DNA of 64,000 nucleotides from NCBI GenBank assembly GCA_000004695.1, contig CM000153.2, positions 448,001-512,000 on the forward strand, given 5' to 3'. This stretch comes from Dictyostelium discoideum (taxonomy: Eukaryota). Positions 1 to 64,000 of the stretch are shown in pieces. The first letter of the stretch is position 1. Each line of letters opens with the position of its first letter. Under the pieces are notes generated by a model. It was given only the letters and a program-made list of their open reading frames with translations. It was not told the origin of the DNA and did not search any database. The translations under genes and the position numbers were made by a program.

Positions 1-523
1 TTTTACCAGTTTGAGTATCAGCAACTACTATTGAAGGTTTTTGAGGTCTCATTTTTAAATATGGTATTCTCAAGAAAATATTTTTGAGTATTGGATATGG
101 ATGAATTAAATCTATAAACCAATTTCTACCACCAAATATACTAATATAAAGTTTTCCTTCTTTGAAATCAACATCAACACCATCTGGATAGCCTGGTAAA
201 TTATCAATGAAAACTTCAGATTTACCTTTATTTGCACCTTTGATCCAGTATCTAAAAACTTTACATCCAGTGGTTTCACCAATGAAAATACTCTCTTCTT
301 TTGGATCAAATGCAACACCATTTGAATATTTAAAACCATCCATTAAAACTTTAGTTTCCTTTGTATTTGGATTATAAGATAATAATTTACCATGACTAAC
401 AGTGGTAACTAATGTATACATTGATGGTATTAAAGTATTCCAATCACCAGTATTATCTAAAATTGGCGCAATACTTGTACTATCTGTAAAATAAATCATA
501 TCATCATTTCCAACAATTACATC
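1..523 (-). CDS. strictosidine synthase-like / APMAP-like protein, exon 2 (3' part of gene runs off the window start)
   Basis: Minus-strand frame reads DVIVGNDDMIYFTDS...GKLLSYNPNTKETKVLMDGFKYSNGVAFDP...NLPGYPDGVD...PYLKMRPQKPSIVVADTQTGK, open to position 1; strong similarity to the APMAP/strictosidine synthase family (IYFTDS, GRPLGI motifs). Acceptor AG at 524-525 (minus). Confidence 0.7.
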
Positions 524-2067: not shown

Positions 2068-4098
2068 ACATTAAAACATTTAACAAAAGTATCAGATATT
2101 GAAAGTTTACATAAATCAACATTAAAAGATGAAATACCAAATGTAAAATTATTAAGATCAATATTAGATGGTGAATTTCATTTTGATCGTGATAGATTAA
2201 GAGAATTATTTCAAAGTTCAAATACATTTAATGAAAGATTTTTAATGGAACCATTATCAACTGATGAACATCGTGAACAAACGCTACAAGCATGTTTAGA
2301 GATTATTCAATTACAATTGGTCCAATTGAATGATATGGAAAAGAATCCAAAGAAATTTCTATCATGGTTTGAATCGATATCAATGTGTGATCCATCAGTA
2401 TCATTGAAATTTGCAGTTCAATATAATTTATGGGGTGGTACAATTCTATTCTTGGGTACAAAGAAACATCATGATAAATATCTTTCAGATATTGCCACTG
2501 GTAAATTACTTGGTGTTTTCGGTCTAACAGAATTAGGTCATGGTAGTAATGTAAATGGTTTAGAAACAACTGCAACCTATGATAGAAATACTCAAGAGTT
2601 TATTATAAATTCACCAACTTGGGAATCTCAAAAATATTGGCCTGGTAATATTAGTAAACATGGTAAAATGGCAACTATTTTTGCACGTTTATTAATAAAT
2701 GATAATGATATTGGTAGTGGTAGTGGTAGTGGTGATAGTGGTATTAAAAAAGATATGGGTATACATGCATTTGTTGTACAAATTAGAAGTGAATCAACAA
2801 GTAATAATAAATATGGTGAATTATTACCAGGTGTAACAGTTAGGGATATAAGTTTAAAGAATTGTTATAATGGTATTGATAATGGTGGTTTATCATTCAA
2901 TAATGTTAGAATTCCAAGAGAGAATATGTTGGATAGATTTAGTAGAGTTGACGCTAATGGTAAATATCATTGTGATCTTCCAAGTAATCGTCATTTCGCA
3001 ATGACTATGAGTGTATTTTTCATTGGTAGATTATGTTTATCATTAAATGCGCTATCATTTATGAAATCAGGTTTATCAATTGCCATTGGTTATTCAATCA
3101 ATCGTCACCAATTTAGTACAACTACCAAGTCAAGACAAGAGATACCAATATTAGTCTATAGTACAACCCAATTACGTTTAATACCATACATTGCAAGAGC
3201 ATATGCATTGGATTTAGCTCATAAAATGATTGCTGATCTATTGGGTAATTCAACGATTTCTAAAGAAGTGATTCATAGTTATAGTAGTGGTTTTAAGGCG
3301 ATTACAAGTTGGACATCGGTAGAATCATTACAATTGGCACGTGAGGTTTTAGGTGGTCAAGGTCTTAGATTATGTAATCGTATACCAATGTTATTGAATC
3401 ATGCTGATTTGATTACCACTGGTGAGGGTGATAATACAGTACTTTGTCAGCAGGTTACCAAATTCCTATTGGCCAAATATCATGCAACCATTAAATCAGC
3501 AGAACCTTCCAATTTCAAAGGTGAACTATCCTATATCAATCATCTCACTTCTCAACCACCAACCACCTCTTTATTGGGTGGAAATGGAGGTACTGATAAT
3601 TCATCGGTAGAGTTGAATTCAATAGCTTTCCATCAATGGTTATTGGAGAAGAGAGAATACATTTTAATTAAAACTTTACATTCTCGTCTCTATGGTAGAA
3701 TGGATGATGAACTAATTGAACCAAATACAGAACGTTGGTTCTCCAATTGGAATCAATCATTACCACTTTGTAAAATGATCACCAAAGCAAATGTTGATCG
3801 TTTAACTCAATCTTTCTTTTTACATAAAATCAATCAGCTAGCTTCCACTTTTGGTTCAACCGATACAAATACAATCACAATGTTAAAGAATCTTTGTCGT
3901 TTAGATACTTTATTTCAAATTCAAAAGGATTTAGGTTTCTTTATTAATAATGGTCTTTTAATTGGTGAAAGTAAATGGATTCAACTTCAAGATGAAATCA
4001 CTCATTTATCACGTGATATCTCACCACATTCCCATTTATTAACTGAAGCATTTGCTATACCAAATAAATTTAATCCACTTCAAAATTCAATTGAATAA
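2068..4098 (+). CDS. peroxisomal acyl-CoA oxidase (ACOX family), exon 2
   Basis: 677 codons with ILDGEFHFDRDRLRELF, GLTELGHGSNVNGLETTATYD, WWPGN-like and LGGQG-type motifs; ends NSIE-stop with no SKL-type PTS1. Contains a (GS)n insertion (DIGSGSGSGDSG). Confidence 0.9.
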   Translation, partial: TLKHLTKVSDIESLHKSTLKDEIPNVKLLRSILDGEFHFDRDRLRELFQSSNTFNERFLMEPLSTDEHREQTLQACLEIIQLQLVQLNDMEKNPKKFLSWFESISMCDPSVSLKFAVQYNLWGGTILFLGTKKHHDKYLSDIATGKLLGVFGLTELGHGSNVNGLETTATYDRNTQEFIINSPTWESQKYWPGNISKHGKMATIFARLLINDNDIGSGSGSGDSGIKKDMGIHAFVVQIRSESTSNNKYGELLPGVTVRDISLKNCYNGIDNGGLSFNNVRIPRENMLDRFSRVDANGKYHCDLPSNRHFAMTMSVFFIGRLCLSLNALSFMKSGLSIAIGYSINRHQFSTTTKSRQEIPILVYSTTQLRLIPYIARAYALDLAHKMIADLLGNSTISKEVIHSYSSGFKAITSWTSVESLQLAREVLGGQGLRLCNRIPMLLNHADLITTGEGDNTVLCQQVTKFLLAKYHATIKSAEPSNFKGELSYINHLTSQPPTTSLLGGNGGTDNSSVELNSIAFHQWLLEKREYILIKTLHSRLYGRMDDELIEPNTERWFSNWNQSLPLCKMITKANVDRLTQSFFLHKINQLASTFGSTDTNTITMLKNLCRLDTLFQIQKDLGFFINNGLLIGESKWIQLQDEITHLSRDISPHSHLLTEAFAIPNKFNPLQNSIE

Positions 4099-5095: not shown

Positions 5096-7261
<2,166 letters not shown>

Positions 7262-7359
7262 GTATGTATTTTTTGTTTTTGTTTGTTTTTTTATATATAA
7301 AATAAAATAAAATAAAATAAAATATAGTTTATTAATTTATTTATTTATTTTTATTAAAG

Positions 7360-25000: not shown

Positions 25001-25337
25001 TTAAATTATGAAGTTGGTTCAACACATAGAAAATTATTAAAAGAAGCATGTGCTAAATTTAGAAACACAACAATCGATATTCCATGTGTTGTTGGTGGTA
25101 AAGAAATTCGTACTGGTGATGTTCAAAAGCAATTAATTTGCTCTGATCATAATAAAGTATTGGCCACCTTCCATCAAGCCAATGCCGAATTACTCAAATT
25201 AGCCGTTGAAAATTCCATGGAATCTAAAGCCCAATGGGAATCATTACCATTTGAAGCAAGAAGTGCAGTTTTCCTTAAAGCTGCAGATTTGTTAAATACC
25301 AAGTACCGTTATGATGTCTTAGCTTCTACTATGCTTG
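25001..25337 (+). CDS. P5C dehydrogenase exon 2
   Basis: AATAG acceptor at 24999-25000. IDIPCVVGGKEIRTGD matches P5CDH EIPCVVGDEEV. Phase-1 GTAAAT donor at 25338. Confidence 0.85.
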
Positions 25338-25424
25338 GTAAATATTATTTTCTAATTTTATAATTTTTTTTATATAATAAAATAAAGTTGCTAATAAATT
25401 TTTTTTTTTTAAAATAAATTATAG

Positions 25425-26380
25425 GTCAAGGTAAAACTGTTTGGCAAGCAGAAATTGATGCAGCAGCAGAAGGTATTGATTTCCTCCGTTTCAATGTTAA
25501 ATACGCTCAAGAAATTTACCAACAACAACCACCAGCCAATTCTGCAGGCTGTTGGAACATTTTAACCTATCAACCATTAGAGGGTTATGTTGTAGCAATC
25601 TCACCATTTAATTTCACAGCAATTGGTTTGAATTTAAGTTCAGCCCCAGCTTTAATGGGTAATGTTGTCCTTTGGAAGCCTGCTTCAACTGCTGTCTTAT
25701 CAAATTGGATCGTTTACAAAGCCCTCCTCGAAGCTGGTTTACCAGCAGGTGTCATTCAATTCCTTCCAGGTAGTGGTCGTTTAGTTGGTGAACATCTTTT
25801 CAACAATAGAAACTTCTCTGGTCTCCATTTCACAGGTTCAACTGGTGTTTTCAATGATATCTATAAAAAGACTGCCGATAATTTAGTTGCTGGTGTTTAC
25901 AAAGGTTATCCAAGAATCGTTGGTGAAACTGGTGGTAAAGATTTCCATTTCCTCCATAACAGTGGTGATGTTGAAAACTTTGTAAATAATACACTCCGTG
26001 GTGCCTTTGAATATCAAGGTCAAAAATGTTCAGCTTGTTCACGTGCTTACATTCCACAATCTTTATGGCCCCAAATTAAAGATAGATTAGTTACTGGTGT
26101 TAAATCAATGAAAATGGGTCAATCTGATGATTTCTCTTCATTCGTTTCAGCTGTCATCGATAAAAACTCTTTCAACAATATTCAATCATACATTGAACAC
26201 GCTAAAGCTTCACCAGATGCTGAAATCATTGTCGGTGGTAAATGTGATAGCTCTGTTGGTTGGTTTGTTGAACCAACTATCATCCTTGCCAAAGATCCAC
26301 ATTACAAATCAATGGAAGAAGAAATTTTCGGTCCAGTCTTAACCATTTATGTTTATGAAGATTCTAAATTTGAAGAAACA
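25425..26380 (+). CDS. P5C dehydrogenase exon 3
   Basis: ATAG acceptor at 25423-25424. GQGKTVWQAEIDAAAEGIDFLRFN, ISPFNFTAIGLNL, GNVVLWKPASTAVLS, IVGETGGKDFHF and EYQGQKCSACSRAYIP (catalytic Cys) are all strongly conserved ALDH4A1 blocks. GTAAGT donor at 26381. Confidence 0.9.
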
Positions 26381-26619
26381 GTAAGTTTTATAATTCTATT
26401 ATTTTGTTTGTTTTTTTTTTTTAAAAAAAAAAAGTTTTAATGATGATACCAAAGAAGAGCCGTATTAAAAACTTTGATTAAAACCTCTTTTTCGAAATCA
26501 ATTTTTAATTGATATCTTTCCTGATTTCTTTTTTTTTTTTTTAAAAAAAAACTTTTTTATATTTTTTATAAAAAATAAAATTAATACTAATAATATTTTG
26601 TTAAATTTGAATATTATAG

Positions 26620-39211: not shown

Positions 39212-39284
39212 GTAAATTGTTTTTATCATTTTTTTCATATCTCTTTTTTTTAATTTATTAATTATTTATTAATTATTTTTTTAG

Positions 39285-41776
39285 GTTATGAAAGTCACAA
39301 TGATTCTCTTGTGATTAGATATCGTGAAAGAGAAAATTATTATACAAATATTTCATTTTTATGGAATGGTAAAAGTCGTTATGATATGAGTTTTAATTGT
39401 GTTTTAAATAATACAATTAGAACTTGTACTTTACCAGTGAAAGAATCTGATCATGCCCAAATGTATTCAGAGAAAATATCTGCATGTACAGAAAATAATG
39501 GTACTTTTAAAAGGTGTGGTTATGATGTTGAGTTATTTTATTTTCCAAGTCCATTTTTAATTTCAGAGTTTAAACCAAAAACACGAGGTGGAAATACAAC
39601 ATTAAGTGGTTATTATTTAGAGTTAAAAGAAAGAATTTATGTTCCATTTGAAAGTCACTATAAAGATGATCAGTTTTATTATGCTGTAGAAGTATATACA
39701 ATTCCAGGTAAGTTTCAATCAAAAACACCAGATAGAATAAATTTAGTTTTAAAAGTTTTTCCAGGTTGTGGATACAGAACAATTATTTGGGAGAATCGTG
39801 AAAGATTAAATTTTACATATCAAGAGCCAAACATTGAAAAAATTGATATTAATCAATCATTTCTTGATATAACTGGTACAAATTTCTACAATCAATCAAT
39901 TTTGGTTTCTGTTAAAATTGATAATAATATTATTGATCCAAATGATATTATTTCAGTTGATTTTGAAATTATTAAATTAAAATTTAATTATTCAGATCCA
40001 TTCTCATCAAAATTGAATGTTCAAGTCGGTTGTTGTGATTATTGGTCAAATCAATTTCAAATTACATATCCACCAATTCCAATAAGTTCAAATAGTATTC
40101 CAAAATTAAAAGGTGGTTTATTAATAATCAATGGTAATAGATTAACTTCATCACCATCATTATCTAATAATATTAATATTTCAGTAACAGTTGGTGATTC
40201 AATTTGTTCAATTGTTTCGTCATCTTCAAATGAAATTAAATGTAATTTACAACCAATATCAAATTCAACATTTAATAATTCATCACCAATTGCTGTATCA
40301 ATAAATGGGGTTGTAAATACAAATACATTATTATTAAATTATGATATTCCATATATTACAACATTCTCTCAAGTAAATGATGAAATTCATATAATTGGTG
40401 GTTGTTTTGGTAATATTAATTCAACTCAAATTCATATCAATGATAAACAAGTTTCTGGCCAAATTAAATCAATTAATAATGATGAAACAATTTTAATATT
40501 AAAAATACAAAATCAAATTTATAATTTCAATCTTTCAATCGAATCAAATTCAATCAAATCAAATGGAATCAATGTAGATGTAAAATTGTATGCAAGTATA
40601 AATGAAATTCCATTGGTTGCTAATAAATTAATTAATTTTACATTATTTTATGTAAATTCAAGTAATATTAATTTAATACCAACAATTAAAATAATTAATG
40701 AAAAATCAAATCAAACAAGTAAATCAATTTCAACCAATGTAAATGAAAGTGTTGTATCATGTTCATTTTTAATTGAAAATAATTGTGGTATTATTAATTA
40801 TGAAATTGAAATTGGTAATCAAATATATCAATCATCATTTTCATATGAATCACCATTGATTAATAAATGTAATTTAAATTCAAATGAAATTGTTACTTGT
40901 ATTTGTAAAGGTTTTGTAAATAAATATAATGAAACAAGTATTTTTATTTCAAATCAATCAATAGCCCTTAGTAAAGAAATTAATAATAGTAGTTATGAAT
41001 CAATATCATTTCAAATGAAAGATGAGTATAATATTCTTGGTGAATTGTATTTAAATGTATGTGGTTTATTATCAAATAAAGTAATTATTAATACATTTCC
41101 AATTTTTAAAAATGTATCGATTCCTAACTTGTTTGGTACAAATGGTGGTAATATCATTATTATTGGTAAATATTTAAATAATAATACAAATATTACAATT
41201 GAATGTAATGGTGAACAAATTATTATAGAAAAAGAATGTAAATTAAAAAATAGTAGTACATCATTAGAATGCAACATTAATTTAAATGGTCCAAATGATA
41301 AAACTTGTAAATTATTATTTAATAATGATAATAGTATAGTATCAACATTTAATTTAATATACAAATCACCATCAATTAATCAAACCAGTATAATTAATTT
41401 AAAACAAGGAGGTATTTTAACAATTATTGGTAATGATTTCTATTATCCAATTGATAAAGTTACAATAATTGGTAATGGTAATGGTAGTGGTAATAGTAGT
41501 AGTTTAAATTGTAATGAAGCAAAGTATATTAATGATACAATTATAACATGTTTTATTCAAGCAACTAATTATACATTTAATAATATTAAAAATGGTGAAA
41601 TGATATTTATCAATGTTTCAACCAATGGTAAAAGTGGTATATCAAAAGTATTCAAATATTTAACTCAATCTGATGATATCCATCAATACTCTGATGCTAG
41701 AAATATCTTTCAAAATCTATTATTATCAATTTTAATCATATTAATCATTTCATTATTATTCATTTCAAATCTTTAA
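39285..41776 (+). CDS. tgr-like IPT/TIG-repeat receptor (+ paralog), exon 2; C-terminal hydrophobic tail (GPI-signal-like or zero-tail TM)
   Basis: 830 codons; repeated IPT-like blocks (NIEKIDINQSFLDITGTNFYNQSILVSVKID..., PKLKGGLLIINGNRLTSSPSLSNNINISV...); ends NLLLSILIILIISLLFISNL-stop. The ORF-track M at 39311 is a GTG codon. Confidence 0.85.
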
Positions 41777-53257: not shown

Positions 53258-56200
53258 TTAATTTAATCTTTCCATTTTAATTTTACCTAATTTCTTATTT
53301 TTAATTGTTTTTGATTTTAATTGTTTTTTAGAACAAATTGTGATACCACCTTTTTTATATTTTCTTACAACTAAAATGATGGTTAGAGAGATCAAAGCAA
53401 TAACAAAAATTACAACACCAGCTATGATTGCAGAGATTTGAGCTTTAGTGAGACCAAAGTTTGTACAAGTTGGATTAAGTTTTGAAGAAGCTGTGTTTAC
53501 TTCTAAAACCATAGTGAAATCTGGATCCAATTCTGCTTTTGTAGAGTAGTAGGGTACATTGATACCAATCAAAGAGTAACTTCTATAGGGTATATCGGTT
53601 GTTATTGGAGAGAGGAAAGAGTTTGTAGTTTTTGTTATTTTACTATTGATGAGTTGTCTTTTTAAGAAACGAGCATATAAAGCTTGACCATTGACTTGAA
53701 GTTTTAAATATTCCGAGCCTGTACTATCATCACCATACTCTTTACAAGAACAAACATCACTATGACTCGATGATTCAATAGAAGCTTCCATAATTAATTG
53801 TAGATAAGATTGATCATTCTTGAAGGAATATTTCGATAGACGGAAAGAGTATTTCAAAGAGGATGGATTCACTTTATAGGAGAGATCAGCAAAGGCTACA
53901 TTGAGGTCATTAATCTCCGATTGATCATAAAAACGTAAAGATGCTGTTAAATTTGTCAAGAAACCATTATCAGTAGCAAAGGTGGTTACATAACTAAAAT
54001 GATAGAGAGAGTTTGCATTACTTTTATTTGAGAATTTCCAACTTTTATCATTGAAACGATAAGATTTATAGACTGAACCGGTTTCATCGATTTCATTTAT
54101 ACCCACGACTGATATTAGAGAGGAGATACGATTACTAGTTTCCAATAGAATTGAGGGTTCCAATACATTGATATGGGGTGGATCCAATGCTATTGGAGTG
54201 GAAGTGCAATCGGCACCAGTATAACCTGCATTACATTTACAACCTACATCAGTATCACATTCACCTTTAATAATACCACCACAATCATTTGGACAAACGA
54301 ATGGATCACTATTATTGGTTTCATTTGGTATAAAAGGTGTTACCAAGAATTTATTACTTTCAATTCCATCAACGGTTACCTTTACAAAGAATTTAGAGCT
54401 AGTCGTATTGGTTGGATAAATGGTTAATAGTAAACCAGATTTAAATGTAACCTCTTGTTGAATGTAACCATTACCAAAATCAATTTCCACAAGTATTGAA
54501 TAATCCTCAGAGATTTGTGATTGAAGATTATGACCAAATATAGTTAGGGGAGTATTTGTAACTGGATTATAGGAGGCCTTTGAAATGATTGGTATTGCAC
54601 TATAGGTGGTTTGAATGAATGAAAAGGTTTTATTCAATTGATAAGCTGACCAACCCGCTATATTAAACATATTATCAGATACACCATAAACCGATAACAT
54701 TAAACCATCGGGTATACCAAAACCAAATGGTACCTCAATCTCTACGTAATAATAGGCTGTATGAATTGTTGAATTTGAATTTTGTAAACATTTGAAATCA
54801 TATTTCTCACCTCTTGAATTCTCTAAATAAACGATTGGTATATGATTTGAAGAAATACCAGATTGTGCATCTTCAATTCTGAATGAAACTAGCAATGTTC
54901 TATTCAATGAACCAACATCGATTGAAGTTTTAATTGAAGTTGTGAAACCATAAAGTAGTGGTGGAGTTACATCTAAAATCTTTTCGGTTGGACATTGAAT
55001 TCTAATGGAATATTTCATTTCAATCTCTGTTAAATTTGAACCTAACCAAGAGAATGGATTAATATAATCGGTTAAATCATTTAGTGTGGTACTATATTGT
55101 CCATCCATTCCCAACAATGATAGTGATGAAATTCTATAGGTATGTGATCTGCACCAAACTGAGCTACTCTTTGGAATTGAGAATTTAAATGTTGGAGTGG
55201 TGGGATTTGATAGTTGTTCCTCTGCATTAGCCAATGTGAAAAATGTAGAATAACCAACCAAATCAAATTCACTTGTAAATGTGATATTACCCGATTGGAA
55301 ACCACTTGTATCAAGTATTTGAATCTCCCATGCTATGGTGGTACCATCATCATTTTGATTTGGATACTTTATGCCATTCTCTGGAGTTCTTTTGATTTGT
55401 TTAACAATTGGTGGCATCGTATCATATTTAAGTTGTCTAATTGATTTGAAAACCGCTGCTTTATAACCCAACAATGAAGTCAATGAAGAAGTATCATACA
55501 CTTTACCAGATGAAATGATTTGATATTGAATGGCTTGATTCGATAGATAAGATGGTAAATAGAAATCAACTACATAACCTCTATATTGTGAACTCCATTT
55601 CATTAGTAAATAATTTGATGGTGATTTTAAAAATTTAGATGCTGAATTACTATTATAAAAGAATTGAAAACCAGGTGTAAATGATAAATCATTCAATGAA
55701 GGATTCTTTCCATTTAATGAATTTGAATATTTTAATACTACTGTATAAATATATCCATCACTATTACTTGATTCATCAAGTTTATCATTATTACTATCTT
55801 CATTATCTTCATTATTATTATTATCATCACTATCACTATTATTAATATTACTATTATTATTATTATTATTTGTTCCATTTGAACTTAATATAAAATCAAT
55901 TGCATAAATTGAACCAGGTTCAACTATTGGCCAATTTGTTTGATAAGGTACAATTTTTTGATTACCAACATTATCAATCAATATAATCTCATGATAATTT
56001 GGAAAGTTGAAATAATTTAAATACTTTTCAAAAGAACCATTAAAAACTGTACCTTTAACTAAATCTGAAGAGGTAAAAGTGACTTGACCAACTTTAATAA
56101 TACCAACACCTGATAAATTATCACATGCATCAATGTGTAAGATTGCATTCATATAATCCAATGTTTTAATTGACACTGCTAATAATGATGGTGGTTTTTC

Positions 56201-56748
56201 ATCGACATATCTATATTCATTTGAATATTGACGAATACTACTACTGGTGGTACCATTTCCAGGTATATAAGCCAAACCAGTTAAACTTGAGTCAATAATT
56301 TTAATAGGTTTCGTTAGATTGGATTGCATTGAAATTAATGGTACAGTTTCATCAACCATATATACTATGAATAATGAATCATTATGTGTATAATGTGGTA
56401 ATAATTTTGTAATTGAATGATTGAAATCATTTGGATTGTATGGATTTCTATAAACCATACCATAAGGATATTGATTGATTACAAAATCAAATGGTTGTAA
56501 TTGTACTTTTAACAATTGTCTATGATAATCCAATCTAAAGTTTATCATAAATAATTGTGCTGAACTATTATAAATTTCAGTTTGATAACCAACAGCTTTT
56601 CTTTGAGTAGTGATTTGAGGTAAACGAGAAACATTTTCAATTAAAATTTGTTTTGATCTATAATCTAAAAATTTTGATATTGTTGATGTATAATTTGTTT
56701 GAGTATTACCACCACTATTATCATCATCGCTACTATTACTAATATCAT

Positions 56749-56822
<74 letters not shown>

Positions 56823-58449
56823 TTATTATTATTACTACTGCTACTACTATTATTACTACTACTACTACTACCGTTATTACCACTTGAACTATCTGTTGGT
56901 AAAGTTTCATTTTGAGAACTGTTGTTGCTACTGCTACTGGTGGTGGTATTATTACCACTTGAACTATCTGTTGGTAAAGTTCCATTTTGAGAACTATCAT
57001 TATTAATAGTACTATCAGTGCTATTACTACTGCTACTACTATTACTATGATTAATGCCATCTATTGGTGTTGTTGTTGTTGTTGTTGTTGTATTACCATT
57101 ATCAGTACTATTAGTTATAATTGTACTATTTTCAGTTAATAATAATTTTGTAGATGGTAATGATAATAATGATGGTGGTGGAGCAGATAAAGGTGAAGGA
57201 TTTAAAGTTGTTTGAGGAATAGGTATAGATTCAAAAGAGAAATTAAAAGTATATAATTGTACATCAAACAAATCACTAAGATTATATTGCACATATTTTG
57301 AAGGATTTACATAACCATAATAACAAACTCTATTCTCATCACCATATAGGATATGTAATGTATTTGAATCCACACCATTGTATTTCATTCTTGGTGTTGC
57401 AAAATCATCTCTTAAATAATTGAAACGATTATTATTATTTTTGTTATTATTATCATCAATTGAAGTATCTGTAAGTTCAAATTCAAATTGTGAATATCTT
57501 GTACTATTTGTTAATGACACATTCTTACCATCATAAACCACTGTACCTTGATATGAAGTTAATTTAAATGTGAAATTAGTTGATTGTGATGAAACGAAAG
57601 GATTGATTAAATTAAAATATTGGTTTGGAATATAGGTATTGGATGGATATGAAACTTCCAATGTTATAGTTGGTAATCTTGATCCAAAATAAGTATAATT
57701 TTGATAACTATTACTACTTCCATTAACAACTGTATTTACAACAGATGGTGAAATCAATTTAAATATTACAATAGTTTGAATGGTTGTATAAGCACTACTA
57801 TTACTATTATTATTATTAAATGAAGAAGATTTATAATCTCTATAAGCTACAAACTTTGCATCATTTGATAAGAATTTAAATTTCTTTTCAATTGAGTAAA
57901 TTGGTGAAACTGTCTCTAAAACCATTGAATAATAAGCACCTTGAAGTTCTCTACCTGGTTGATCATATTCAAAACTACTTGATGTAAAAATATTATTTTG
58001 GAAGGAAGAAGAAGAAGAGGAGAAGGAAGAAGAATAAAAAGAAGAAGAAACACCTCTTTGATAAAATGATATAGCATCATATTCATATAATGGGTAATAT
58101 TGTTTATATGGATATAGTACACTAAATCTTGGTGATAGATAAAGTTTTTCAGGTGCAACTGAGCAAACAACCGATGGTATTGATGTTGAAAAATATCTAT
58201 CATTATATTGAACAATCAATAATCCTCCAATTGGTATTCTAGTACCATTTGGAAATGTATCATTACTATTTGGTATCCAATATTTAATAAATAAATTTGG
58301 TTTTGAATTTATATATTCAATTTGAACATTTGTTGAAAAATTTGCTAAATTAAATGTATAACTATCATTTTTTAATATATAATGTATTAAAAATTCACAA
58401 CCACCATTTAATTTTGAACTATTTGAATAAGTTTGATTTAAAATTGTAT
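53258..58449 (-). CDS. large extracellular EGF-like/IPT-like repeat transmembrane protein, exon 2 (1730 codons)
   Basis: EGF-like CPNDCGGIIKGECDTDVGCKCNAGYTGADC; IPT-like blocks; Ser/Thr-rich mucin-like stretches; TM segment IIAGVVIFVIALISLTIILVV followed by a basic tail. The frame is open upstream of the ORF-track TTG start as far as a TTTAATAG acceptor at 58450-58451 (minus). Confidence 0.8.
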
Positions 58450-58544
58450 CTATTAAATAAAATAAAAAAATAAAAAAAATTAATAAATCAATAAATTAAC
58501 ATATTAAATAATAATAATATAATAATAATAATATAAATAATTAC

Positions 58545-59721
58545 AATTAAATGGAAAATTTAAAAGAGGTGGTTCAGTTGAATTTGAAGAATCAGTATTA
58601 TTTATAAATGATGGACAACTTGTAACTTTAATTAAATCGAAATCAGTTCTACCGTTTAAGCATTGTAACTCCATTGAAATTGAATTTGTAAGGTTTCCAC
58701 AACCTTCACTACCAAAAAGATAAACGATTTGATTTTTATTTGATTGACCTTTTGAGTGAATTAATATTGATTTATATTGACATTGCATTGGAAATTCAAA
58801 TTGACATTTTGTATTATTGTTATTATTTTGTTGTAATATTCCTGTTGCTGTTGGAGTTGGGGTTGTTATTGTTGTTGTTTTAGTTGTTGATGATGATGAT
58901 GACGATGATGATGACGATGATGACGATGTGGATGTAGGTATTGATAAACTAATATTTATACATTGATTTATAGGTACATATATAGTTTGGCATAAACATT
59001 TTAAATAAACGCTAAATGTATTATTTTGTGGTGGAACTGTTGGTGTTGGTGTTGTTGTTATATTTGGTGTTAAAATTGGTGTTGTTGTTATATTTGGTGT
59101 TAAAGTTGGTGTATCTGTGGGATTATTACTATTGTCATCTATTTTCGGGCATTCAACTTTAAAATATTGAAAATTAATTGTGTTGTTTTTATTACTATTA
59201 TTTTTATTATTGCCATTGCTACTACTATTATTATTTTTATCATTACTTAAACATTCGAGTGTCTCATTTTTAAAGAAATCTGTACAATTATAATTTGAAA
59301 AACTCCTTATTGTGGTAAAGGTGCCTTGTGCTGTCTCATTATTTATTATGTTACTAAAAGGTATAAAAATGGATATAAATGGACATTCATCATCGCTGCT
59401 ATTATTATTATTACTACTATTATTATTATGCTTGGATATATGGTTATTTATTAAATTTGTACACTGACCCTCTGGAATCGTCATTAATTCCGTATAATTA
59501 CATTTGTTTTGAAAAATAAATTTATATACATTGATTTTATTACCACTACTACTACTACTACTATTAGTTCCATTACTATTACTGCTATTATTATTATTAT
59601 TAATATTATTATTATTACTATCTGTAGATGCTTTAACAAATATTGATGTTGAAAACACAAAAGATAATATTAGAAAAATATAAAATAAAAAGAATCCTCT
59701 TCTTTTATTTAATATTATCAT
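58545..59721 (-). CDS. same large surface protein, exon 1 (signal peptide plus Cys/Thr/Ser-rich N-terminal region)
   Basis: ATG at 59719-59721 (minus). Signal peptide MIILNKRRGFFLFYIFLILSFVFSTSIFVKAS. The ORF would otherwise run into YYYYYIIII; a GTAATT donor at 58539-58544 (minus), phase 1, joins in frame across a 95-nt intron to ...NFPFNYTILNQTYSNSSKLNGGCEF.... Confidence 0.65.
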
Positions 59722-60178
59722 TTTCTATTATTCTCTACCATATATCTATGTTATATATATAATATATATGTATCTCTATTTAAATAATTATATATTGTAT
59801 TTATGTATATTTTTTAATATTGTTATTATTATTATTATTATTATTATTTAATATTAGTTAATAATTTTGTGTATTTTGAATTTTGTATTTTGAATTTTGT
59901 ATTTTTTTTTTTTTTTGTATATAGTTATTTTTATGTATAAAAAGTAAATAAACAATAAATTAATAAATAAATAAATAAATAAATAAATTTGGGTTTTTTT
60001 TTTTTATTATAATTTTCTTTTATTTTAATGTGTGTTGATTATTATTTTAATAATAAATTATTTTTATTTGTTTTTTTTTTTTTGTTTTTTTTTTATGATT
60101 TAAAGTAATATTTGTGTGGGCAGAGGATGTGGTGGATGAGAAAAAAAAAATAAAAAAATAAAAAAATAAAAAAAATAA

Positions 60179-60223
<45 letters not shown>

Positions 60224-60343
60224 TTTTTTTTTTTTTTTTTTTTTTTTTGGCAAAATTCAGATTTTTTGAATCTTATTTACACTTTATTATAAGCGTGATA
60301 TTTTACGTATTAAAATAAATGGGTTATAATTTTTCGCTATTTT

Positions 60344-60377
<34 letters not shown>

Positions 60378-60619
60378 GACAAATTATTTTTGCCGATTAA
60401 ACATTTACCACCTCTTAAAAAAGAATAAGTGGGTGAACTTTCAATTTTTTTATTTTTTTTTATCCAAAATTTTGAAGGCATTGTTTTTATTTTTTTTATT
60501 TTTATTTTTTTTTTTTTTTTTGATTATTATTATTTTCATCTAATCAATTAGTTTTTATTTTTATTTTTTTTATTTATTTTAATTAATTGTAGTCGGTCAA
60601 TCTGGCTTTATTAAATTGA

Positions 60620-61852
60620 TTAATAACCATATCCACCATAAAAACCTTGATGTTGTTGTTGGTGATGTTGTTGTTGTTGTTGTATGTGTTGTTGATGGTG
60701 ATGTTGTTGTTGTTGATGGTGATGTTGTGGTTGAGCTTGTTGTTGCTGATAAATATAACTATTATTTTGAATTACACCATTATTATTTGAAGTTGGTGGT
60801 ACAGAATAAGCAACTCTTTTATTTAGTGGACCATCATTATTACCATTATTAATAATACCATTTGTTGTTGATGATGATGATGACGATGATGATTGTAAAT
60901 TCATATCGGTTAGTGATCTTTTCTTTGATTCTGGTTTACCATCAGGATATAAACTTTCAAATTTATTCTTTAACTCTTTATAACCTTTAATATCATTATC
61001 ATATTGTAAATTAAATTCTAAATAGTCATTCCAAATATTCAATTTTTCATCATCATTTAATTTACAAACTAAAATTTCATTTCCATCCTTTTCTTCATCA
61101 TCTTTTTCTTCATCATCTTTTTCTTTTTCTTTTTCTTCATTATTAGTATTTTCTTTATTTTCTTCTTTATTTTCTTCTTTATTTTCTTTACCATTATTTT
61201 TAATTTTATTTTTATCTAAACATAATGCAATATTATAAACTTTTTTAATTCTTTCAATTTGTTCAATTCTTTTTTCACTACTACCACTGCCACTTATAAT
61301 AAATAATAAATTATTAATTTCAAAATTTATAAAATATAACCATAATAATTTTGAATCTGGATAAAGTGAAATTGATTTCTTTAAAACCTCTCTTGATGTT
61401 TCAAAAACGTCAACAATTTTATCAGCTTCCTCTTCACCTTCTTTTTCACCTTGTAATGATTGTTTATTTGATAATAAAAATGAAATATAATTTATAGATA
61501 AGAAAGGATAAGTCTTGGAATCAGATTGTAAACTTGTTAGAACCTTTTTAAAGAATTGATTTGCTTGTTGAATTGAATGATTTCTACGTTTAAATGAAAC
61601 CAATCTTAAAATCACCTCTAAATGAGTTGGTAATAATGAATGTATATTCTCCAAAATTGAAAATGCCTTTTCAATATTACCCAATGTTGACTCTACGAAT
61701 AATGAATACTCCAAATGAATATCAGCTCTCTTTTTTAAGAATATCTTTGTCGCTCTCTCAAATATTGATTCAATTAATTCATTCTTATTATCTCCAACAT
61801 AACTTTCTTGTAAAAATTTAATATATTTTAACCAAAATTCTGAATAATAACA
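60620..61852 (-). CDS. pre-mRNA processing factor 39 (PRP39-like HAT-repeat protein), exon 4; C-terminal Q/H-rich tail
   Basis: AAAAAAG acceptor at 61853-61854 (minus). CYYSEFWLKYIKFLQESYVGDNKNELIESIFERATKIFLKKRADIHLEYSLFVES... (HAT repeats). Stop at 60620-60622. Confidence 0.8.
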   Translation of the reverse strand, partial: CYYSEFWLKYIKFLQESYVGDNKNELIESIFERATKIFLKKRADIHLEYSLFVESTLGNIEKAFSILENIHSLLPTHLEVILRLVSFKRRNHSIQQANQFFKKVLTSLQSDSKTYPFLSINYISFLLSNKQSLQGEKEGEEEADKIVDVFETSREVLKKSISLYPDSKLLWLYFINFEINNLLFIISGSGSSEKRIEQIERIKKVYNIALCLDKNKIKNNGKENKEENKEENKENTNNEEKEKEKDDEEKDDEEKDGNEILVCKLNDDEKLNIWNDYLEFNLQYDNDIKGYKELKNKFESLYPDGKPESKKRSLTDMNLQSSSSSSSSTTNGIINNGNNDGPLNKRVAYSVPPTSNNNGVIQNNSYIYQQQQAQPQHHHQQQQHHHQQHIQQQQQHHQQQHQGFYGGYGY

Positions 61853-61930
61853 CTTTTTTAAAAAAAATAAAAAATAAATAAATTAATATGATTAATAATA
61901 ATAATAATAAATAAATAATAATATACTTAC

Positions 61931-62077
61931 ACATGGTACTAAACATCTTTCAAAAAGTTTAATAACTTCCTCTTGAGTTACAGATGGATCAGATTCCATA
62001 TAATTGAAATATGATCTCCATACTGATAATGTCATTTCATCAATTGGTTGAATATGAAAGAAGAATCTTTTATTTAC
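61931..62077 (-). CDS. PRP39-like, exon 3
   Basis: TATCTAG acceptor; VNKRFFFHIQPIDEMTLSVWRSYFNYMESDPSVTQEEVIKLFERCLVPC; GTAAGT donor at 61925-61930 (minus). Confidence 0.7.
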
Positions 62078-62170
62078 CTAGATAATATTTTTTTAAAAAT
62101 AAAATCAAAAATTAGTTTGTGTTGTGTTTATTATTATTATTATTATTTTTTTTTTTTTTTTAAAACTTAC

Positions 62171-62507
62171 AATTGATTCAAAATTTGATCTTTTTGAAAT
62201 TTTTTCTAAAGTTTCATGATACCATTTCTCTCTATTTTGTAAGACCATTTGTTTAGTTTCAGCATCATAACCAGTGTATTCTTTTCTTTCTTCTTCTGTT
62301 AACATATCATTAATTTTAATTCTATCGATATTATCTTTAAATTTTTCATTAAAAATTTGTAAATTCTCTAATGGTGTCTTTAAAATACTATTAAATATTG
62401 ATGCTAATTCATTATTCTCTTGTCCCATTTCAAATTCAATATATTTTTCCCAAAATTTACCACTTTGATAATCTGTACCAATAATATTAATGCCTCTTTT
62501 AAATACA
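62171..62507 (-). CDS. PRP39-like, exon 2
   Basis: TATATAG acceptor at 62508-62509 (minus); VFKRGINIIGTDYQSGKFWEKYIEFEM...REKWYHETLEKISKRSNFESI; GTAAGT donor at 62165-62170 (minus). Confidence 0.75.
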
Positions 62508-62589
62508 CTATATATAAAATAAAGCAAATTAAATCATTATTAGTTACTTTTATTTTATTATTTTTTAAAAAAAAAAAATATATATTTAC

Positions 62590-62972
62590 CTTCTAATTTC
62601 ATCAACTGGATAAGATTTATCAATTAAATGAGTACAATAATTTAACCAAATATCAACACTATGTGGAATTGATGATACTGCTTTTTCAAATATTTCAATT
62701 GATTGAGTTGTATTATTATGAGCATACTCATGATCTGCAAATCTTTTCCAATATAAAAAACATAATGGAAATTCATTTAAAAATTCACTATACACTTTTC
62801 TAATCTTTTCAATATCATTAGTTTTCTCTATTACACCAATTAAAAATGTCCATTGATTAAATGCCAATGGATTAGTTTGAACAATTTTCCAAAGTTTATC
62901 TTCTTCACTTAAATTTTGTGGTGAAGTTGTTGGTGTTGATGTTGTTGGTGGAGTTGTTGTTACTTCAGTCAT
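62590..62972 (-). CDS. PRP39-like, exon 1
   Basis: ATG at 62970-62972 (minus); LWKIVQTNPLAFNQWTFLIGVIEK...YSEFLNEFPLCFLYWKRFADHEY (the YWKRFAD HAT signature of PRP39); GTAAAT donor at 62584-62589 (minus), phase 2. Confidence 0.85.
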
Positions 62973-63241
62973 ATTTTTTATTTTATTTTATTTTCTTTTG
63001 TTTTTAAATTTTATTATATAGTAGTATTATTAATTAAATATTATATATATATACATATATTTATGAACACAACAAACTTGGTGAAATAAAAAAAAAATGA
63101 AAAAAAAAAAAATGAAAAAAAATAAAAAAGTGAAAAAAATAAAAAAAAAAAAAAAATAAAAATAAAAATAAAAAAATAAAAAAATAAAAATAAATTTTCC
63201 AAAAATTTCCTAGTTCAGAAAAAAAAAAAAAAGATTTTATT

Positions 63242-64000
63242 TTATTCTGATAATTTATTTAAATCATTTTTAGTTAAAATACCAGTATCTAAAATGATTG
63301 AAGTTACTAAAGTCATTGGAGTAACATCGAATGCTGGATTAAAAGTTTTTGAATTTTTTGGAGCCCAACGAACTTGGCCAAAGGCACCACTTGCACCTTG
63401 AACTTCAGTTTGAGAACGTTCTTCAATTGGGATATCTTTACCAGTTAGACATTTGATATCAACAGTTGACATTGGAGCCACACAATGGAATGGGATGTTA
63501 TGGTGATTTGCCAACACTGCGACACTGTATGTACCGATTTTATTGGCAAAGTCGCCATTGGCAGCGATACGGTCGGCGCCAACCAACACCCTTTGGATTT
63601 TACCATCACGCATTAAGCATGCAGCCATGTTGTCGCAGATTAGTGTGTATGGAATGCCCTCTCTCTCCAACTCGTATGTAGTCAAACGGCCGCCTTGGAG
63701 CAATGGACGGGTTTCGTCGACATAGACATGGATGTTCTTGCCCTGCTTGTGGGCCTCCCTGATGACGCCCAATGCAGTGCCTGCGCCCACTGTGGCGACA
63801 CTGCCGGTGTTGCAGTGAGTGAGAATGGACTCGCCTGGTTGGATCAAGGATGCCCCGAATTTCGACATCTTGTCACACATGTCCACTTCGTTTCTAATGA
63901 TACGCATTGCAATCTCGCCGAATCTGGTGGCAGAGTAATCACGATTTTCAACATTACCCTCCTTCAATTGCATCATCTCATCAATTGCAAACATTAAATT
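63242..64000 (-). CDS. S-methyl-5-thioribose-1-phosphate isomerase (MtnA / eIF2B-related family); 3' two-thirds only, N-terminus beyond the window end
   Basis: ILTHCNTGSVATVGAGTALGVIREAH, VYVDETRPLLQGGRLTTYEL, VGADRIAANGDFANKIGTY, NPAFDVTP; stop at 63242-63244. The frame is open to position 64000. Confidence 0.85.
   Translation of the reverse strand, partial: NLMFAIDEMMQLKEGNVENRDYSATRFGEIAMRIIRNEVDMCDKMSKFGASLIQPGESILTHCNTGSVATVGAGTALGVIREAHKQGKNIHVYVDETRPLLQGGRLTTYELEREGIPYTLICDNMAACLMRDGKIQRVLVGADRIAANGDFANKIGTYSVAVLANHHNIPFHCVAPMSTVDIKCLTGKDIPIEERSQTEVQGASGAFGQVRWAPKNSKTFNPAFDVTPMTLVTSIILDTGILTKNDLNKLSE

Follow-up and report, generated by a model that had tools for sequence, protein, structure and literature searches.

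A lineage-specific island of silent AT-to-GC change within the mtnA gene of Dictyostelium discoideum

The stretch of Dictyostelium discoideum DNA analyzed here, 64,000 nucleotides of contig CM000153.2 (assembly GCA_000004695.1, strain AX4, positions 448,001 to 512,000; hereafter the window), ends within mtnA, an intronless minus-strand gene of 346 codons which encodes S-methyl-5-thioribose-1-phosphate isomerase and contains, in its middle part, a GC-rich island confined to silent sites. The 252 codons of mtnA that fall inside the window specify a product 100% identical to the D. discoideum AX4 protein (methylthioribose-1-phosphate isomerase in UniRef). Membership in the MtnA family (PF01008/TIGR00512) was judged by a full-length match above the curated cut-off, and the 346-residue protein matches the TIGR00512 mtnA equivalog over residues 8–337 with 401.2 bits (cut-off 279), so that the gene had been correctly recognized as MtnA-like in a first-pass annotation of the window made from the sequence alone. 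The nearest solved structures are likewise those of MtnA (PDB 1t9k and 2yvk, E = 5e-84 to 2e-73). The product and its orthologues carry the name “translation initiation factor eIF-2B alpha subunit” at NCBI, an apparent misnomer, because the TIGR00512 score lies well above its cut-off whereas the scores against eIF2B-subunit models are far below theirs.

To place the gene in a comparative context, we collected orthologous loci from two D. discoideum strains, two lineages labeled cf. discoideum, D. citrinum, D. dimigraforme, D. firmibasis, D. purpureum, and four more distant dictyostelids, and built a codon alignment. In every dictyostelid examined mtnA is a single exon of 345–352 codons, intronless in all ten species, and in the group-4 loci its neighbors are constant, with a gene for a 153-residue protein upstream and a PRP39-like gene downstream. 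Protein identity over the 252 window codons is graded with distance, from 99% and 98% in the two cf. discoideum lineages through 97% in D. citrinum, 95% in D. dimigraforme, and 93% in D. firmibasis to 84% in D. purpureum. Judged by this gradation, the single copy, and the retained neighbors, mtnA is a vertically inherited dictyostelid orthologue. The features of the locus are compiled in Table 1.

Table 1. Features of the mtnA locus in window coordinates (GC1, GC2, GC3: GC fraction at first, second, and third codon positions)
Feature	Coordinates	Strand	Basis or remark
mtnA, 3′ part, 252 codons	63245..64000	-	open translation to the stop; gene continues past the window end
mtnA TAA stop codon	63242..63244	-	
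mtnA, last ~38 codons	63245..63359	-	ordinary AT-rich codon usage, GC3 0.05–0.15
Gly/Ala/Arg/Pro-rich stretch	63360..63445	-	GC3 0.10–0.15, GC1 0.55–0.75, GC2 0.5–0.6
Island, broad limits, codons ~102–279	63446..63979	-	49.6% GC; outermost clustered derived AT-to-GC third-position changes
Island core, codons 133–263	63494..63886	-	52.7% GC; two-change-point maximum-likelihood scan, 2*dLL = 114
A-rich intergenic spacer separating mtnA from the PRP39-like gene	63000..63241		8.5–10% GC; outside the island

The first-pass annotation had drawn attention to an abrupt rise to about 50% GC at position 63,360, following an AT-rich 3′ end. The anomaly itself is real, whereas its location and interpretation have to be revised. 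GC content is 48.2% in 63,360–64,000 versus 22.0% in 63,242–63,359, and 63,501–64,000, with 49.6%, is the most GC-rich 500-bp bin of the window (39% in the next, 22.5% on average). However, between 63,360 and about 63,480 GC3 is only 0.10–0.25; the elevated GC of this segment sits in codon positions 1 and 2 and therefore reflects its amino acids. Rather than shifting abruptly, GC3 begins to rise at about 63,450–63,494, reaches 0.55–0.85 with a maximum of 0.85 at 63,731–63,790, and drops to 0.35 at 63,941–64,000, the island having faded out near 63,980. Beyond the window end lies the 5′ third of mtnA, which was read from two other D. discoideum assemblies, not from AX4; its GC3 is about 0.05–0.3. 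A uniform composition along the whole gene, which had been envisaged as a possible way to dissolve the anomaly, is thus not what the missing part reveals, and since the 5′ third is AT-rich again, the feature is an internal silent-site GC island of approximately 0.4–0.5 kb in the middle of mtnA rather than a 5′ block. Of 103 third positions in the core that were ancestrally A/T, 72 have become G/C, compared with 16 of 175 outside it. In 60-codon segments mtnA attains a GC3 of 0.73, whereas none of the other genuine open reading frames of the window exceeds 0.4, the only other frames above this value being alternate frames of low-complexity repeats. Among the codons singled out as atypical, GGC (13 in-frame occurrences in 63,360–64,000), GAG (8), and GCC (7) are indeed well represented, but CTC (2), AGG (2), CAG (1), and ACG (0) are not.

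The position of the anomaly at the very edge of the window could raise the suspicion of an assembly chimera or contamination, one of the explanations entertained at the outset. This is contradicted by the data and the chance of it is negligible: two independent D. discoideum assemblies carry the same island at 97.6–97.9% nucleotide identity to the window (16–18 differences in 759 nucleotides), it occurs in graded form in four sister lineages, the versions in the two cf. discoideum assemblies and in D. citrinum standing next to the same neighboring genes, and the reading frame runs unbroken across both edges.

Comparison of the orthologous loci shows when the island arose. Island GC3 is 0.19–0.26 in D. 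purpureum, D. firmibasis, and D. dimigraforme, 0.31 in D. citrinum, 0.41 and 0.49 in the two cf. discoideum lineages, and 0.59–0.65 in D. discoideum, with the first 100 and last 70 codons of the gene staying at about 0.1 throughout this group of lineages. Along the stem of D. discoideum, parsimony mapping places 7, 24, 16, and 15 AT-to-GC changes (62 in total) on four successive branches, and 0, 6, 0, and 2 changes (8 in total) in the opposite direction. Site patterns are overwhelmingly nested on the tree, and the changes assigned to each branch are dispersed over the whole island, which therefore reflects stepwise, continuing accumulation and not one imported tract. The island is lineage-specific and was built step by step.

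This history bears directly on a foreign origin of the segment, that is, horizontal transfer or conversion by a GC-richer donor, which had also been proposed; a bacterium, another amoeba, or a paralogue could be the donor. The GC content is alien to the D. discoideum genome, and the best nucleotide matches of the island in a plasmid collection are bacterial mtnA genes at 67–71% identity; yet such a level is to be expected from a conserved enzyme encoded by GC-rich codons. The island protein is 97–98% identical to that of D. citrinum, all top protein matches are dictyostelid (non-dictyostelids reach at most about 71% among 5.8 billion proteins), synteny is kept across the group-4 species, and a protein search revealed no second close mtnA copy in D. 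discoideum. The closest relatives of the segment thus lie inside the host clade, and the G/C changes form a nested series over four successive branches and are scattered rather than tract-like. A foreign source is accordingly contradicted and extremely improbable; of the gene conversion part of that proposal, an allelic, GC-biased form is retained below as the leading explanation.

Elevated GC3 in mtnA is also seen at a distance from D. discoideum. In the GC-richer dictyostelids Heterostelium album and Cavenderia fasciculata (positions 3001–4059 of the fetched locus in both) GC3 of the gene is 0.42–0.50 almost gene-wide, with flanks of 31–32% GC, which constitutes a whole-gene bias unlike the D. 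discoideum island. GGT is the commonest Gly codon in C. fasciculata mtnA (17 of 24), whereas H. album uses GGA (12) and GGT (10), with GGC being rare (4).

We next consider rates, with the ancestral state inferred from three outgroups. In the island, 77 of 129 ancestral A/T third positions (60%) are now G/C, as opposed to 11 of 149 (7%) elsewhere in the gene (Fisher p = 5.6e-22), corresponding to implied equilibrium GC3 values of 0.72 and 0.22, respectively. Third-position divergence in the island is 3–4.5 times that in the rest of mtnA and in the adjacent PRP39-like gene, and third-position changes with respect to D. citrinum are strongly asymmetric in the island (59:12) but symmetric in the comparison regions (24:32; p = 4e-6). 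AT-to-GC changes thus form a spatial, branch-specific cluster exceeding the flanks, as expected of a footprint of GC-biased gene conversion (gBGC). By contrast, the rate of GC-conservative third-position changes is not raised (5 in the island vs 11 in the flanks), which is the expectation for a fixation bias and not for general mutagenesis. The protein has remained almost unchanged, with amino acid replacements near nil alongside the silent shift. The ratio of AT-to-GC to GC-to-AT changes on the stem branches, 62:8 in the island versus 11:3 in the flanks of the same gene, does not differ significantly (Fisher p = 0.38); the signal lies in the AT-to-GC rate, the clustering, and the comparison with the neighboring gene, and not in this ratio alone. 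Outside the codon families in which conversion is blocked (see below), conversion has affected about 68% of the ancestral codons ending in T and 67% of those ending in A, and the drive is therefore strand-symmetric. RNA editing and transcription-coupled asymmetry were considered as well and rejected, given that the T-to-C and A-to-G fractions are equal outside the blocked families.

Could the island reflect selection at silent sites for C- or G-ending codons in the middle of mtnA, for instance, through faster or more accurate elongation or through messenger RNA level or stability, as an extreme case of the genome-wide codon-preference profile? Extreme expression-linked codon bias had been suggested from the outset, and several observations speak for it. 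Conversion is more frequent toward G/C-ending partners that are relatively enriched in highly expressed genes (61%) than toward others (38%; p = 0.018), the preferred codons CGT (Arg), CAA (Gln), and CCA (Pro) are retained in the island, the use of CGT in all group-4 species suggests that mtnA is well expressed, and the limits of the island fit the genome-wide profile. Nonetheless, measured against the codon usage of the 1000 most highly expressed genes (Table S3 of PMC8321536), our reference set for high expression, the island does not approach translational optimality. Highly expressed genes do not reach a similar composition, the GC3 of this set being only 0.183 (PMC8321536); given its amino acids and the usage of these genes, the island is expected to have a GC3 of 0.176 (standard deviation 0.028), whereas the observed 0.56–0.61 exceeds this by 13.6–15.5 standard deviations. 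The codon adaptation index (CAI), the calculation of which had been recommended as a check, is 0.33–0.36 for the island with the same reference, about half of the 0.65–0.70 found in the relatives, and 0.79–0.84 for the gene's own flanks. Of the 10 Asp codons of the island 6 are GAC, a codon with a share of 12% in the top-1000 set, and GGC accounts for 4% of Gly codons in highly expressed genes, in which GGT accounts for 83% (PMC8321536), but for 13–15 of 16 in the island.

The fate of individual codons is instructive in this respect. In most codon families about 55–80% of ancestral codons have been converted to the G/C-ending transition partner. GGT has become GGC at all 14 ancestral sites, although GGT is kept by all other dictyostelids, GC-richer ones included, and GTA has become GTG at four of five sites, both against preference. 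Conversely, some conversions are blocked: NCA to NCG (0 of 18) and CGT to CGC (0 of 6) did not occur at all, and CAA to CAG (1 of 5) and AGA to AGG (1 of 4) occurred once each. AT-to-GC change thus proceeded regardless of, or against, selection at the site, as gBGC is expected to do, yet the most strongly disfavored codons are excluded. Taken together, the fall in CAI, the replacement by GGC and GTG, and the exclusion of NCG and CGC indicate a general GC-ward push filtered by purifying selection at the codon level, not a shift toward translational optimality. In addition, for fixation to rise 8-fold, each silent site would need a scaled selection coefficient of about 8, which greatly exceeds the usual strength of codon selection, and there is no reason why selection should exempt the first 100 and last 70 codons in this lineage only. 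We consider selection for C/G-ending codons as the cause of the island to be improbable. Avoidance of CpG dinucleotides was also tried as the cause of the missing NCG codons and rejected, the island containing 27 CpG versus 33 expected, mostly at codon boundaries. The completeness of the change from GGT to GGC, compared to about 50–75% in the other T-to-C classes, is unexplained; GGC is the perfect match of 18 tRNA-Gly(GCC) genes and is nevertheless rare even in highly expressed genes.

A sequence constraint other than codon usage, such as an antisense gene, a structured RNA, or a DNA-binding platform overlapping mtnA, might also force a GC-rich composition. On the antisense strand, 63,644–63,994 contains an open frame of at least 117 codons; however, its 134 codons compare with a mean of 115 (standard deviation 18) in synonymous shuffles (p = 0.18), and the frame is broken in the cf. 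discoideum lineages (74–79 codons). The folding energy of the island is no better than that of shuffled sequences on either strand (z = 0.33 and 0.64), and a scan of 63,000–64,000 against Rfam with E-values up to 1 produced no match, results which also deprive selection on messenger RNA structure of a signal. We therefore regard an overlapping functional element as very improbable. None of the seven orthologous loci contains a tRNA gene, a possible retroelement target or break site, and the only repeats in 63,000–64,000 are A-rich and intergenic, the only palindrome being a short one outside the core.

Within D. discoideum we compared three sequences, AX4, GCA_054859355.1, and GCA_054859385.1. 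The two latter assemblies have G/C where AX4 has A/T at 9–11 third-position sites, with the reverse at one, and after polarization the differences among the three are mostly AT-to-GC, indicating that the process is still running within the species. Some site patterns among these few sequences are mutually incompatible, for which parallel AT-to-GC change accounts equally well. Over 59,363–64,000 the two assemblies differ from AX4 by ~3–4% mismatches and ~100 gap openings in 4.6–4.8 kb of aligned sequence, a divergence that is high for conspecific strains, and the label “D. discoideum” may cover deeply diverged lineages.

The data establish where, in which direction, and when the substitutions arose, as well as their symmetry between strands and the codon filter, whereas the cause is a matter of inference. 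Collectively, we infer that the drive behind the island is either gBGC at a hotspot of recombination or repair or a mutational process biased from AT to GC. The reading we favor, with a probability of roughly 0.55, is that of a local, lineage-specific, still-active AT-to-GC hotspot in mtnA maintained by GC-biased gene conversion or repair at a recombining or broken spot. On this reading, a strong drive, equal on both strands, has fixed A/T-to-G/C changes in ~0.4–0.5 kb of the middle of the gene since the D. discoideum lineage parted from D. dimigraforme and D. citrinum; only silent changes pass purifying selection on the protein, codon-level selection stops the worst codons (NCG, CGC, CAG, and AGG), and the GC3 island is the outcome of the drive and the two filters. 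The likeliest source of such a drive would be GC-biased repair of heteroduplex mismatches, that is, gBGC, with conversion occurring, probably in episodes, at a gene-body spot where recombination or break repair recurs. The pattern seen here, in which silent AT-to-GC changes cluster within less than a kilobase on particular branches, at a raised rate and indifferent to codon preference, is the recognized signature of a gBGC episode. Indirect hints of gBGC in D. discoideum come from the correlation of −0.94 between chromosome size and GC content (PMC5635611) and from higher GC around lost introns (PMC4683709).

A number of observations weigh against this reading. The suppression of GC-to-AT fixation expected under gBGC is not seen: the fraction of GC sites that changed to AT is the same in the island (0.23, 6 of 26–27) as in the flanks (0.26, 5 of 18–19), and 4–6 of the island changes appear genuine, whereas constant strong gBGC with a B of about 8, as required for the 8-fold excess, predicts almost none. 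As GC-to-AT change is not suppressed, one has to assume a drive that acts in episodes, a moderate one accompanied by extra AT-to-GC mutation, or one that is purely mutational. When Gly is left out, conversion to partners that are not enriched in highly expressed genes drops to 16% (6 of 38), as selection would have it. Furthermore, five tests, including allele-frequency spectra of intronic single-nucleotide polymorphisms, revealed no genome-wide gBGC in D. discoideum (PMC8321536), and meiotic crossovers in this species map mostly to AT-rich non-coding DNA (PMC6369745). The island rises at about codons 100–130 and falls off some 70 codons ahead of the stop, limits that resemble the genome-wide profile of codon preference with its climb to about codon 120 and its drop about 50 codons before the stop (PMC8321536, section 12), and a process tied to gene architecture is conceivable. 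Finally, the sample from D. discoideum itself consists of only three sequences.

The main rival to biased conversion is a local AT-to-GC mutational bias without any fixation bias. Error-prone repair of a lesion that recurs in the gene body, or of a site there that is hard to replicate, would make mainly A:T-to-G:C transitions and raise the mutational input ~8-fold, the products being fixed by drift and selection purging the bad codons. This is the simplest fit to the rates, with AT-to-GC change up ~8-fold and the GC-to-AT and GC-conservative classes as given above, and it agrees with the reported lack of genome-wide gBGC. Transitions account for 74 of the 82 island AT-to-GC changes within the clade of D. 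citrinum and the discoideum lineages, but this excess is largely forced by the genetic code, two-fold sites permitting transitions only, and A-to-C transversions have been fixed where NCG is blocked. Moreover, third-position diversity among D. discoideum strains is 0.076–0.088 in the island, not clearly above the 0.03–0.08 of the neighboring gene, and no known process keeps a bias of this kind within 0.4 kb of a single gene for so long. On balance we consider a purely mutational origin unlikely, albeit a serious alternative to biased conversion.

The remainder of the window contains several features of separate interest. The segment 6271–6981, within the open reading frame of a BTB-domain protein (5096–7297, plus strand), is a skewed low-complexity stretch with alternate-frame “open reading frames” of GC3 up to 0.85; with a GC skew of −0.84 and an AT skew of +0.65 in 6501–7000, it resembles a long trinucleotide repeat of the poly-Gln/Asn type rather than a second GC3 island. 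The second-highest GC content (39%, 25,501–26,000) belongs to an aldehyde dehydrogenase gene (25001–26437, plus strand; PF00171, E = 7e-76), which, in contrast to mtnA, has a GC3 of just 0.19–0.22 and owes its GC to its amino acids. A TgrO1-like protein with Ig/TIG domains (39254–41773, plus strand) and a large protein with DUF7034, DUF7035, and DUF7743 domains (53261–58495, minus strand) resemble polymorphic cell-surface families of social amoebae.

An island of this kind in a housekeeping gene shows that some local GC-ward force acts in the D. discoideum genome, in which the mutational equilibrium GC is ~12% and which serves as a gBGC-free model for separating mutation from selection in codon usage (PMC8321536). 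D. discoideum has no Spo11, yet recombines at high frequency through an initiation mechanism that is not known (PMC6369745), and it is tempting to see the island as the footprint of a stable intragenic initiation site of Spo11-independent meiotic recombination or of recurrent break repair, a suggestion we put forward only tentatively and hold to be rather doubtful. If true, GC-biased conversion would operate in D. discoideum at a few hot, narrow sites missed by genome-wide tests, and silent AT-to-GC clusters in new Dictyostelium genomes would map otherwise unknown initiation sites. A link to recombination would make such islands a cheap comparative locator of recombination or repair hotspots, whereas under a mutational origin the island would mark an unrecognized site-specific mutagenic process. 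Either way, with GGC complete and NCG and CGC wholly excluded, mtnA is a natural experiment on the limits of a GC-ward drive against codon selection, and for annotation purposes the suspicion of contamination or horizontal transfer is removed from the gene. Our literature search retrieved no report of such an island in Dictyostelium and nothing relevant on mtnA in Dictyostelium or on the genomes of D. citrinum and D. dimigraforme.

How does the island compare with known systems? D. discoideum is not known to have a PRDM9-type hotspot system. Expression-linked codon bias of D. discoideum itself, reportedly described by Sharp and Devine in 1989, is one point of comparison. With this bias (de Oliveira et al. 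2021, PMC8321536) the island shares many derived C-ending codons of the kind relatively enriched in highly expressed genes, the retention of CGT, CAA, and CCA, and a similar mid-gene geometry; it differs in having a GC3 of 0.6 versus 0.18, in its falling CAI, in the use of GGC and GTG against preference, and in its restriction to one lineage. Dictyostelium exons flanking lost introns also display a local rise in GC, ascribed to gene conversion, namely, cDNA-mediated biased gene conversion (PMC4683709), but that effect is a modest statistical shift and not an island with a GC3 of 0.6, and no intron loss accompanies the island in mtnA.

The closest parallels are found in mammals. Exon- and lineage-specific gBGC episodes, as recognized by the approach of Galtier and Duret (2007) and in Murinae (bioRxiv 10.1101/2025.01.08.631863), have in common with mtnA a sub-kilobase cluster of silent AT-to-GC changes that is confined to particular branches, has a raised substitution rate, and ignores codon preference; the width of 0.4–0.5 kb and the clustering match the rodent episodes. 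Unlike these, the mtnA island has grown over at least four successive branches instead of one, GC-to-AT change is unsuppressed, and almost no amino acid changes have been fixed. In the mouse Fxy gene, as in mtnA, one part of the gene has undergone a spectacular recent rise in GC3 while the rest has remained ancestral; according to the passages on Fxy in the same source (bioRxiv 10.1101/2025.01.08.631863), the 3′ part moved into the pseudoautosomal region and the rise is attributed to very high local recombination. As portrayed in those passages, Fxy has a known cause, the translocation across the pseudoautosomal boundary, and has fixed many amino acid changes, whereas in mtnA synteny is unchanged, both gene ends are AT-rich, and the protein is conserved. 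Local gBGC-like episodes are thus already known, and the mtnA island adds to them a case, not a category.

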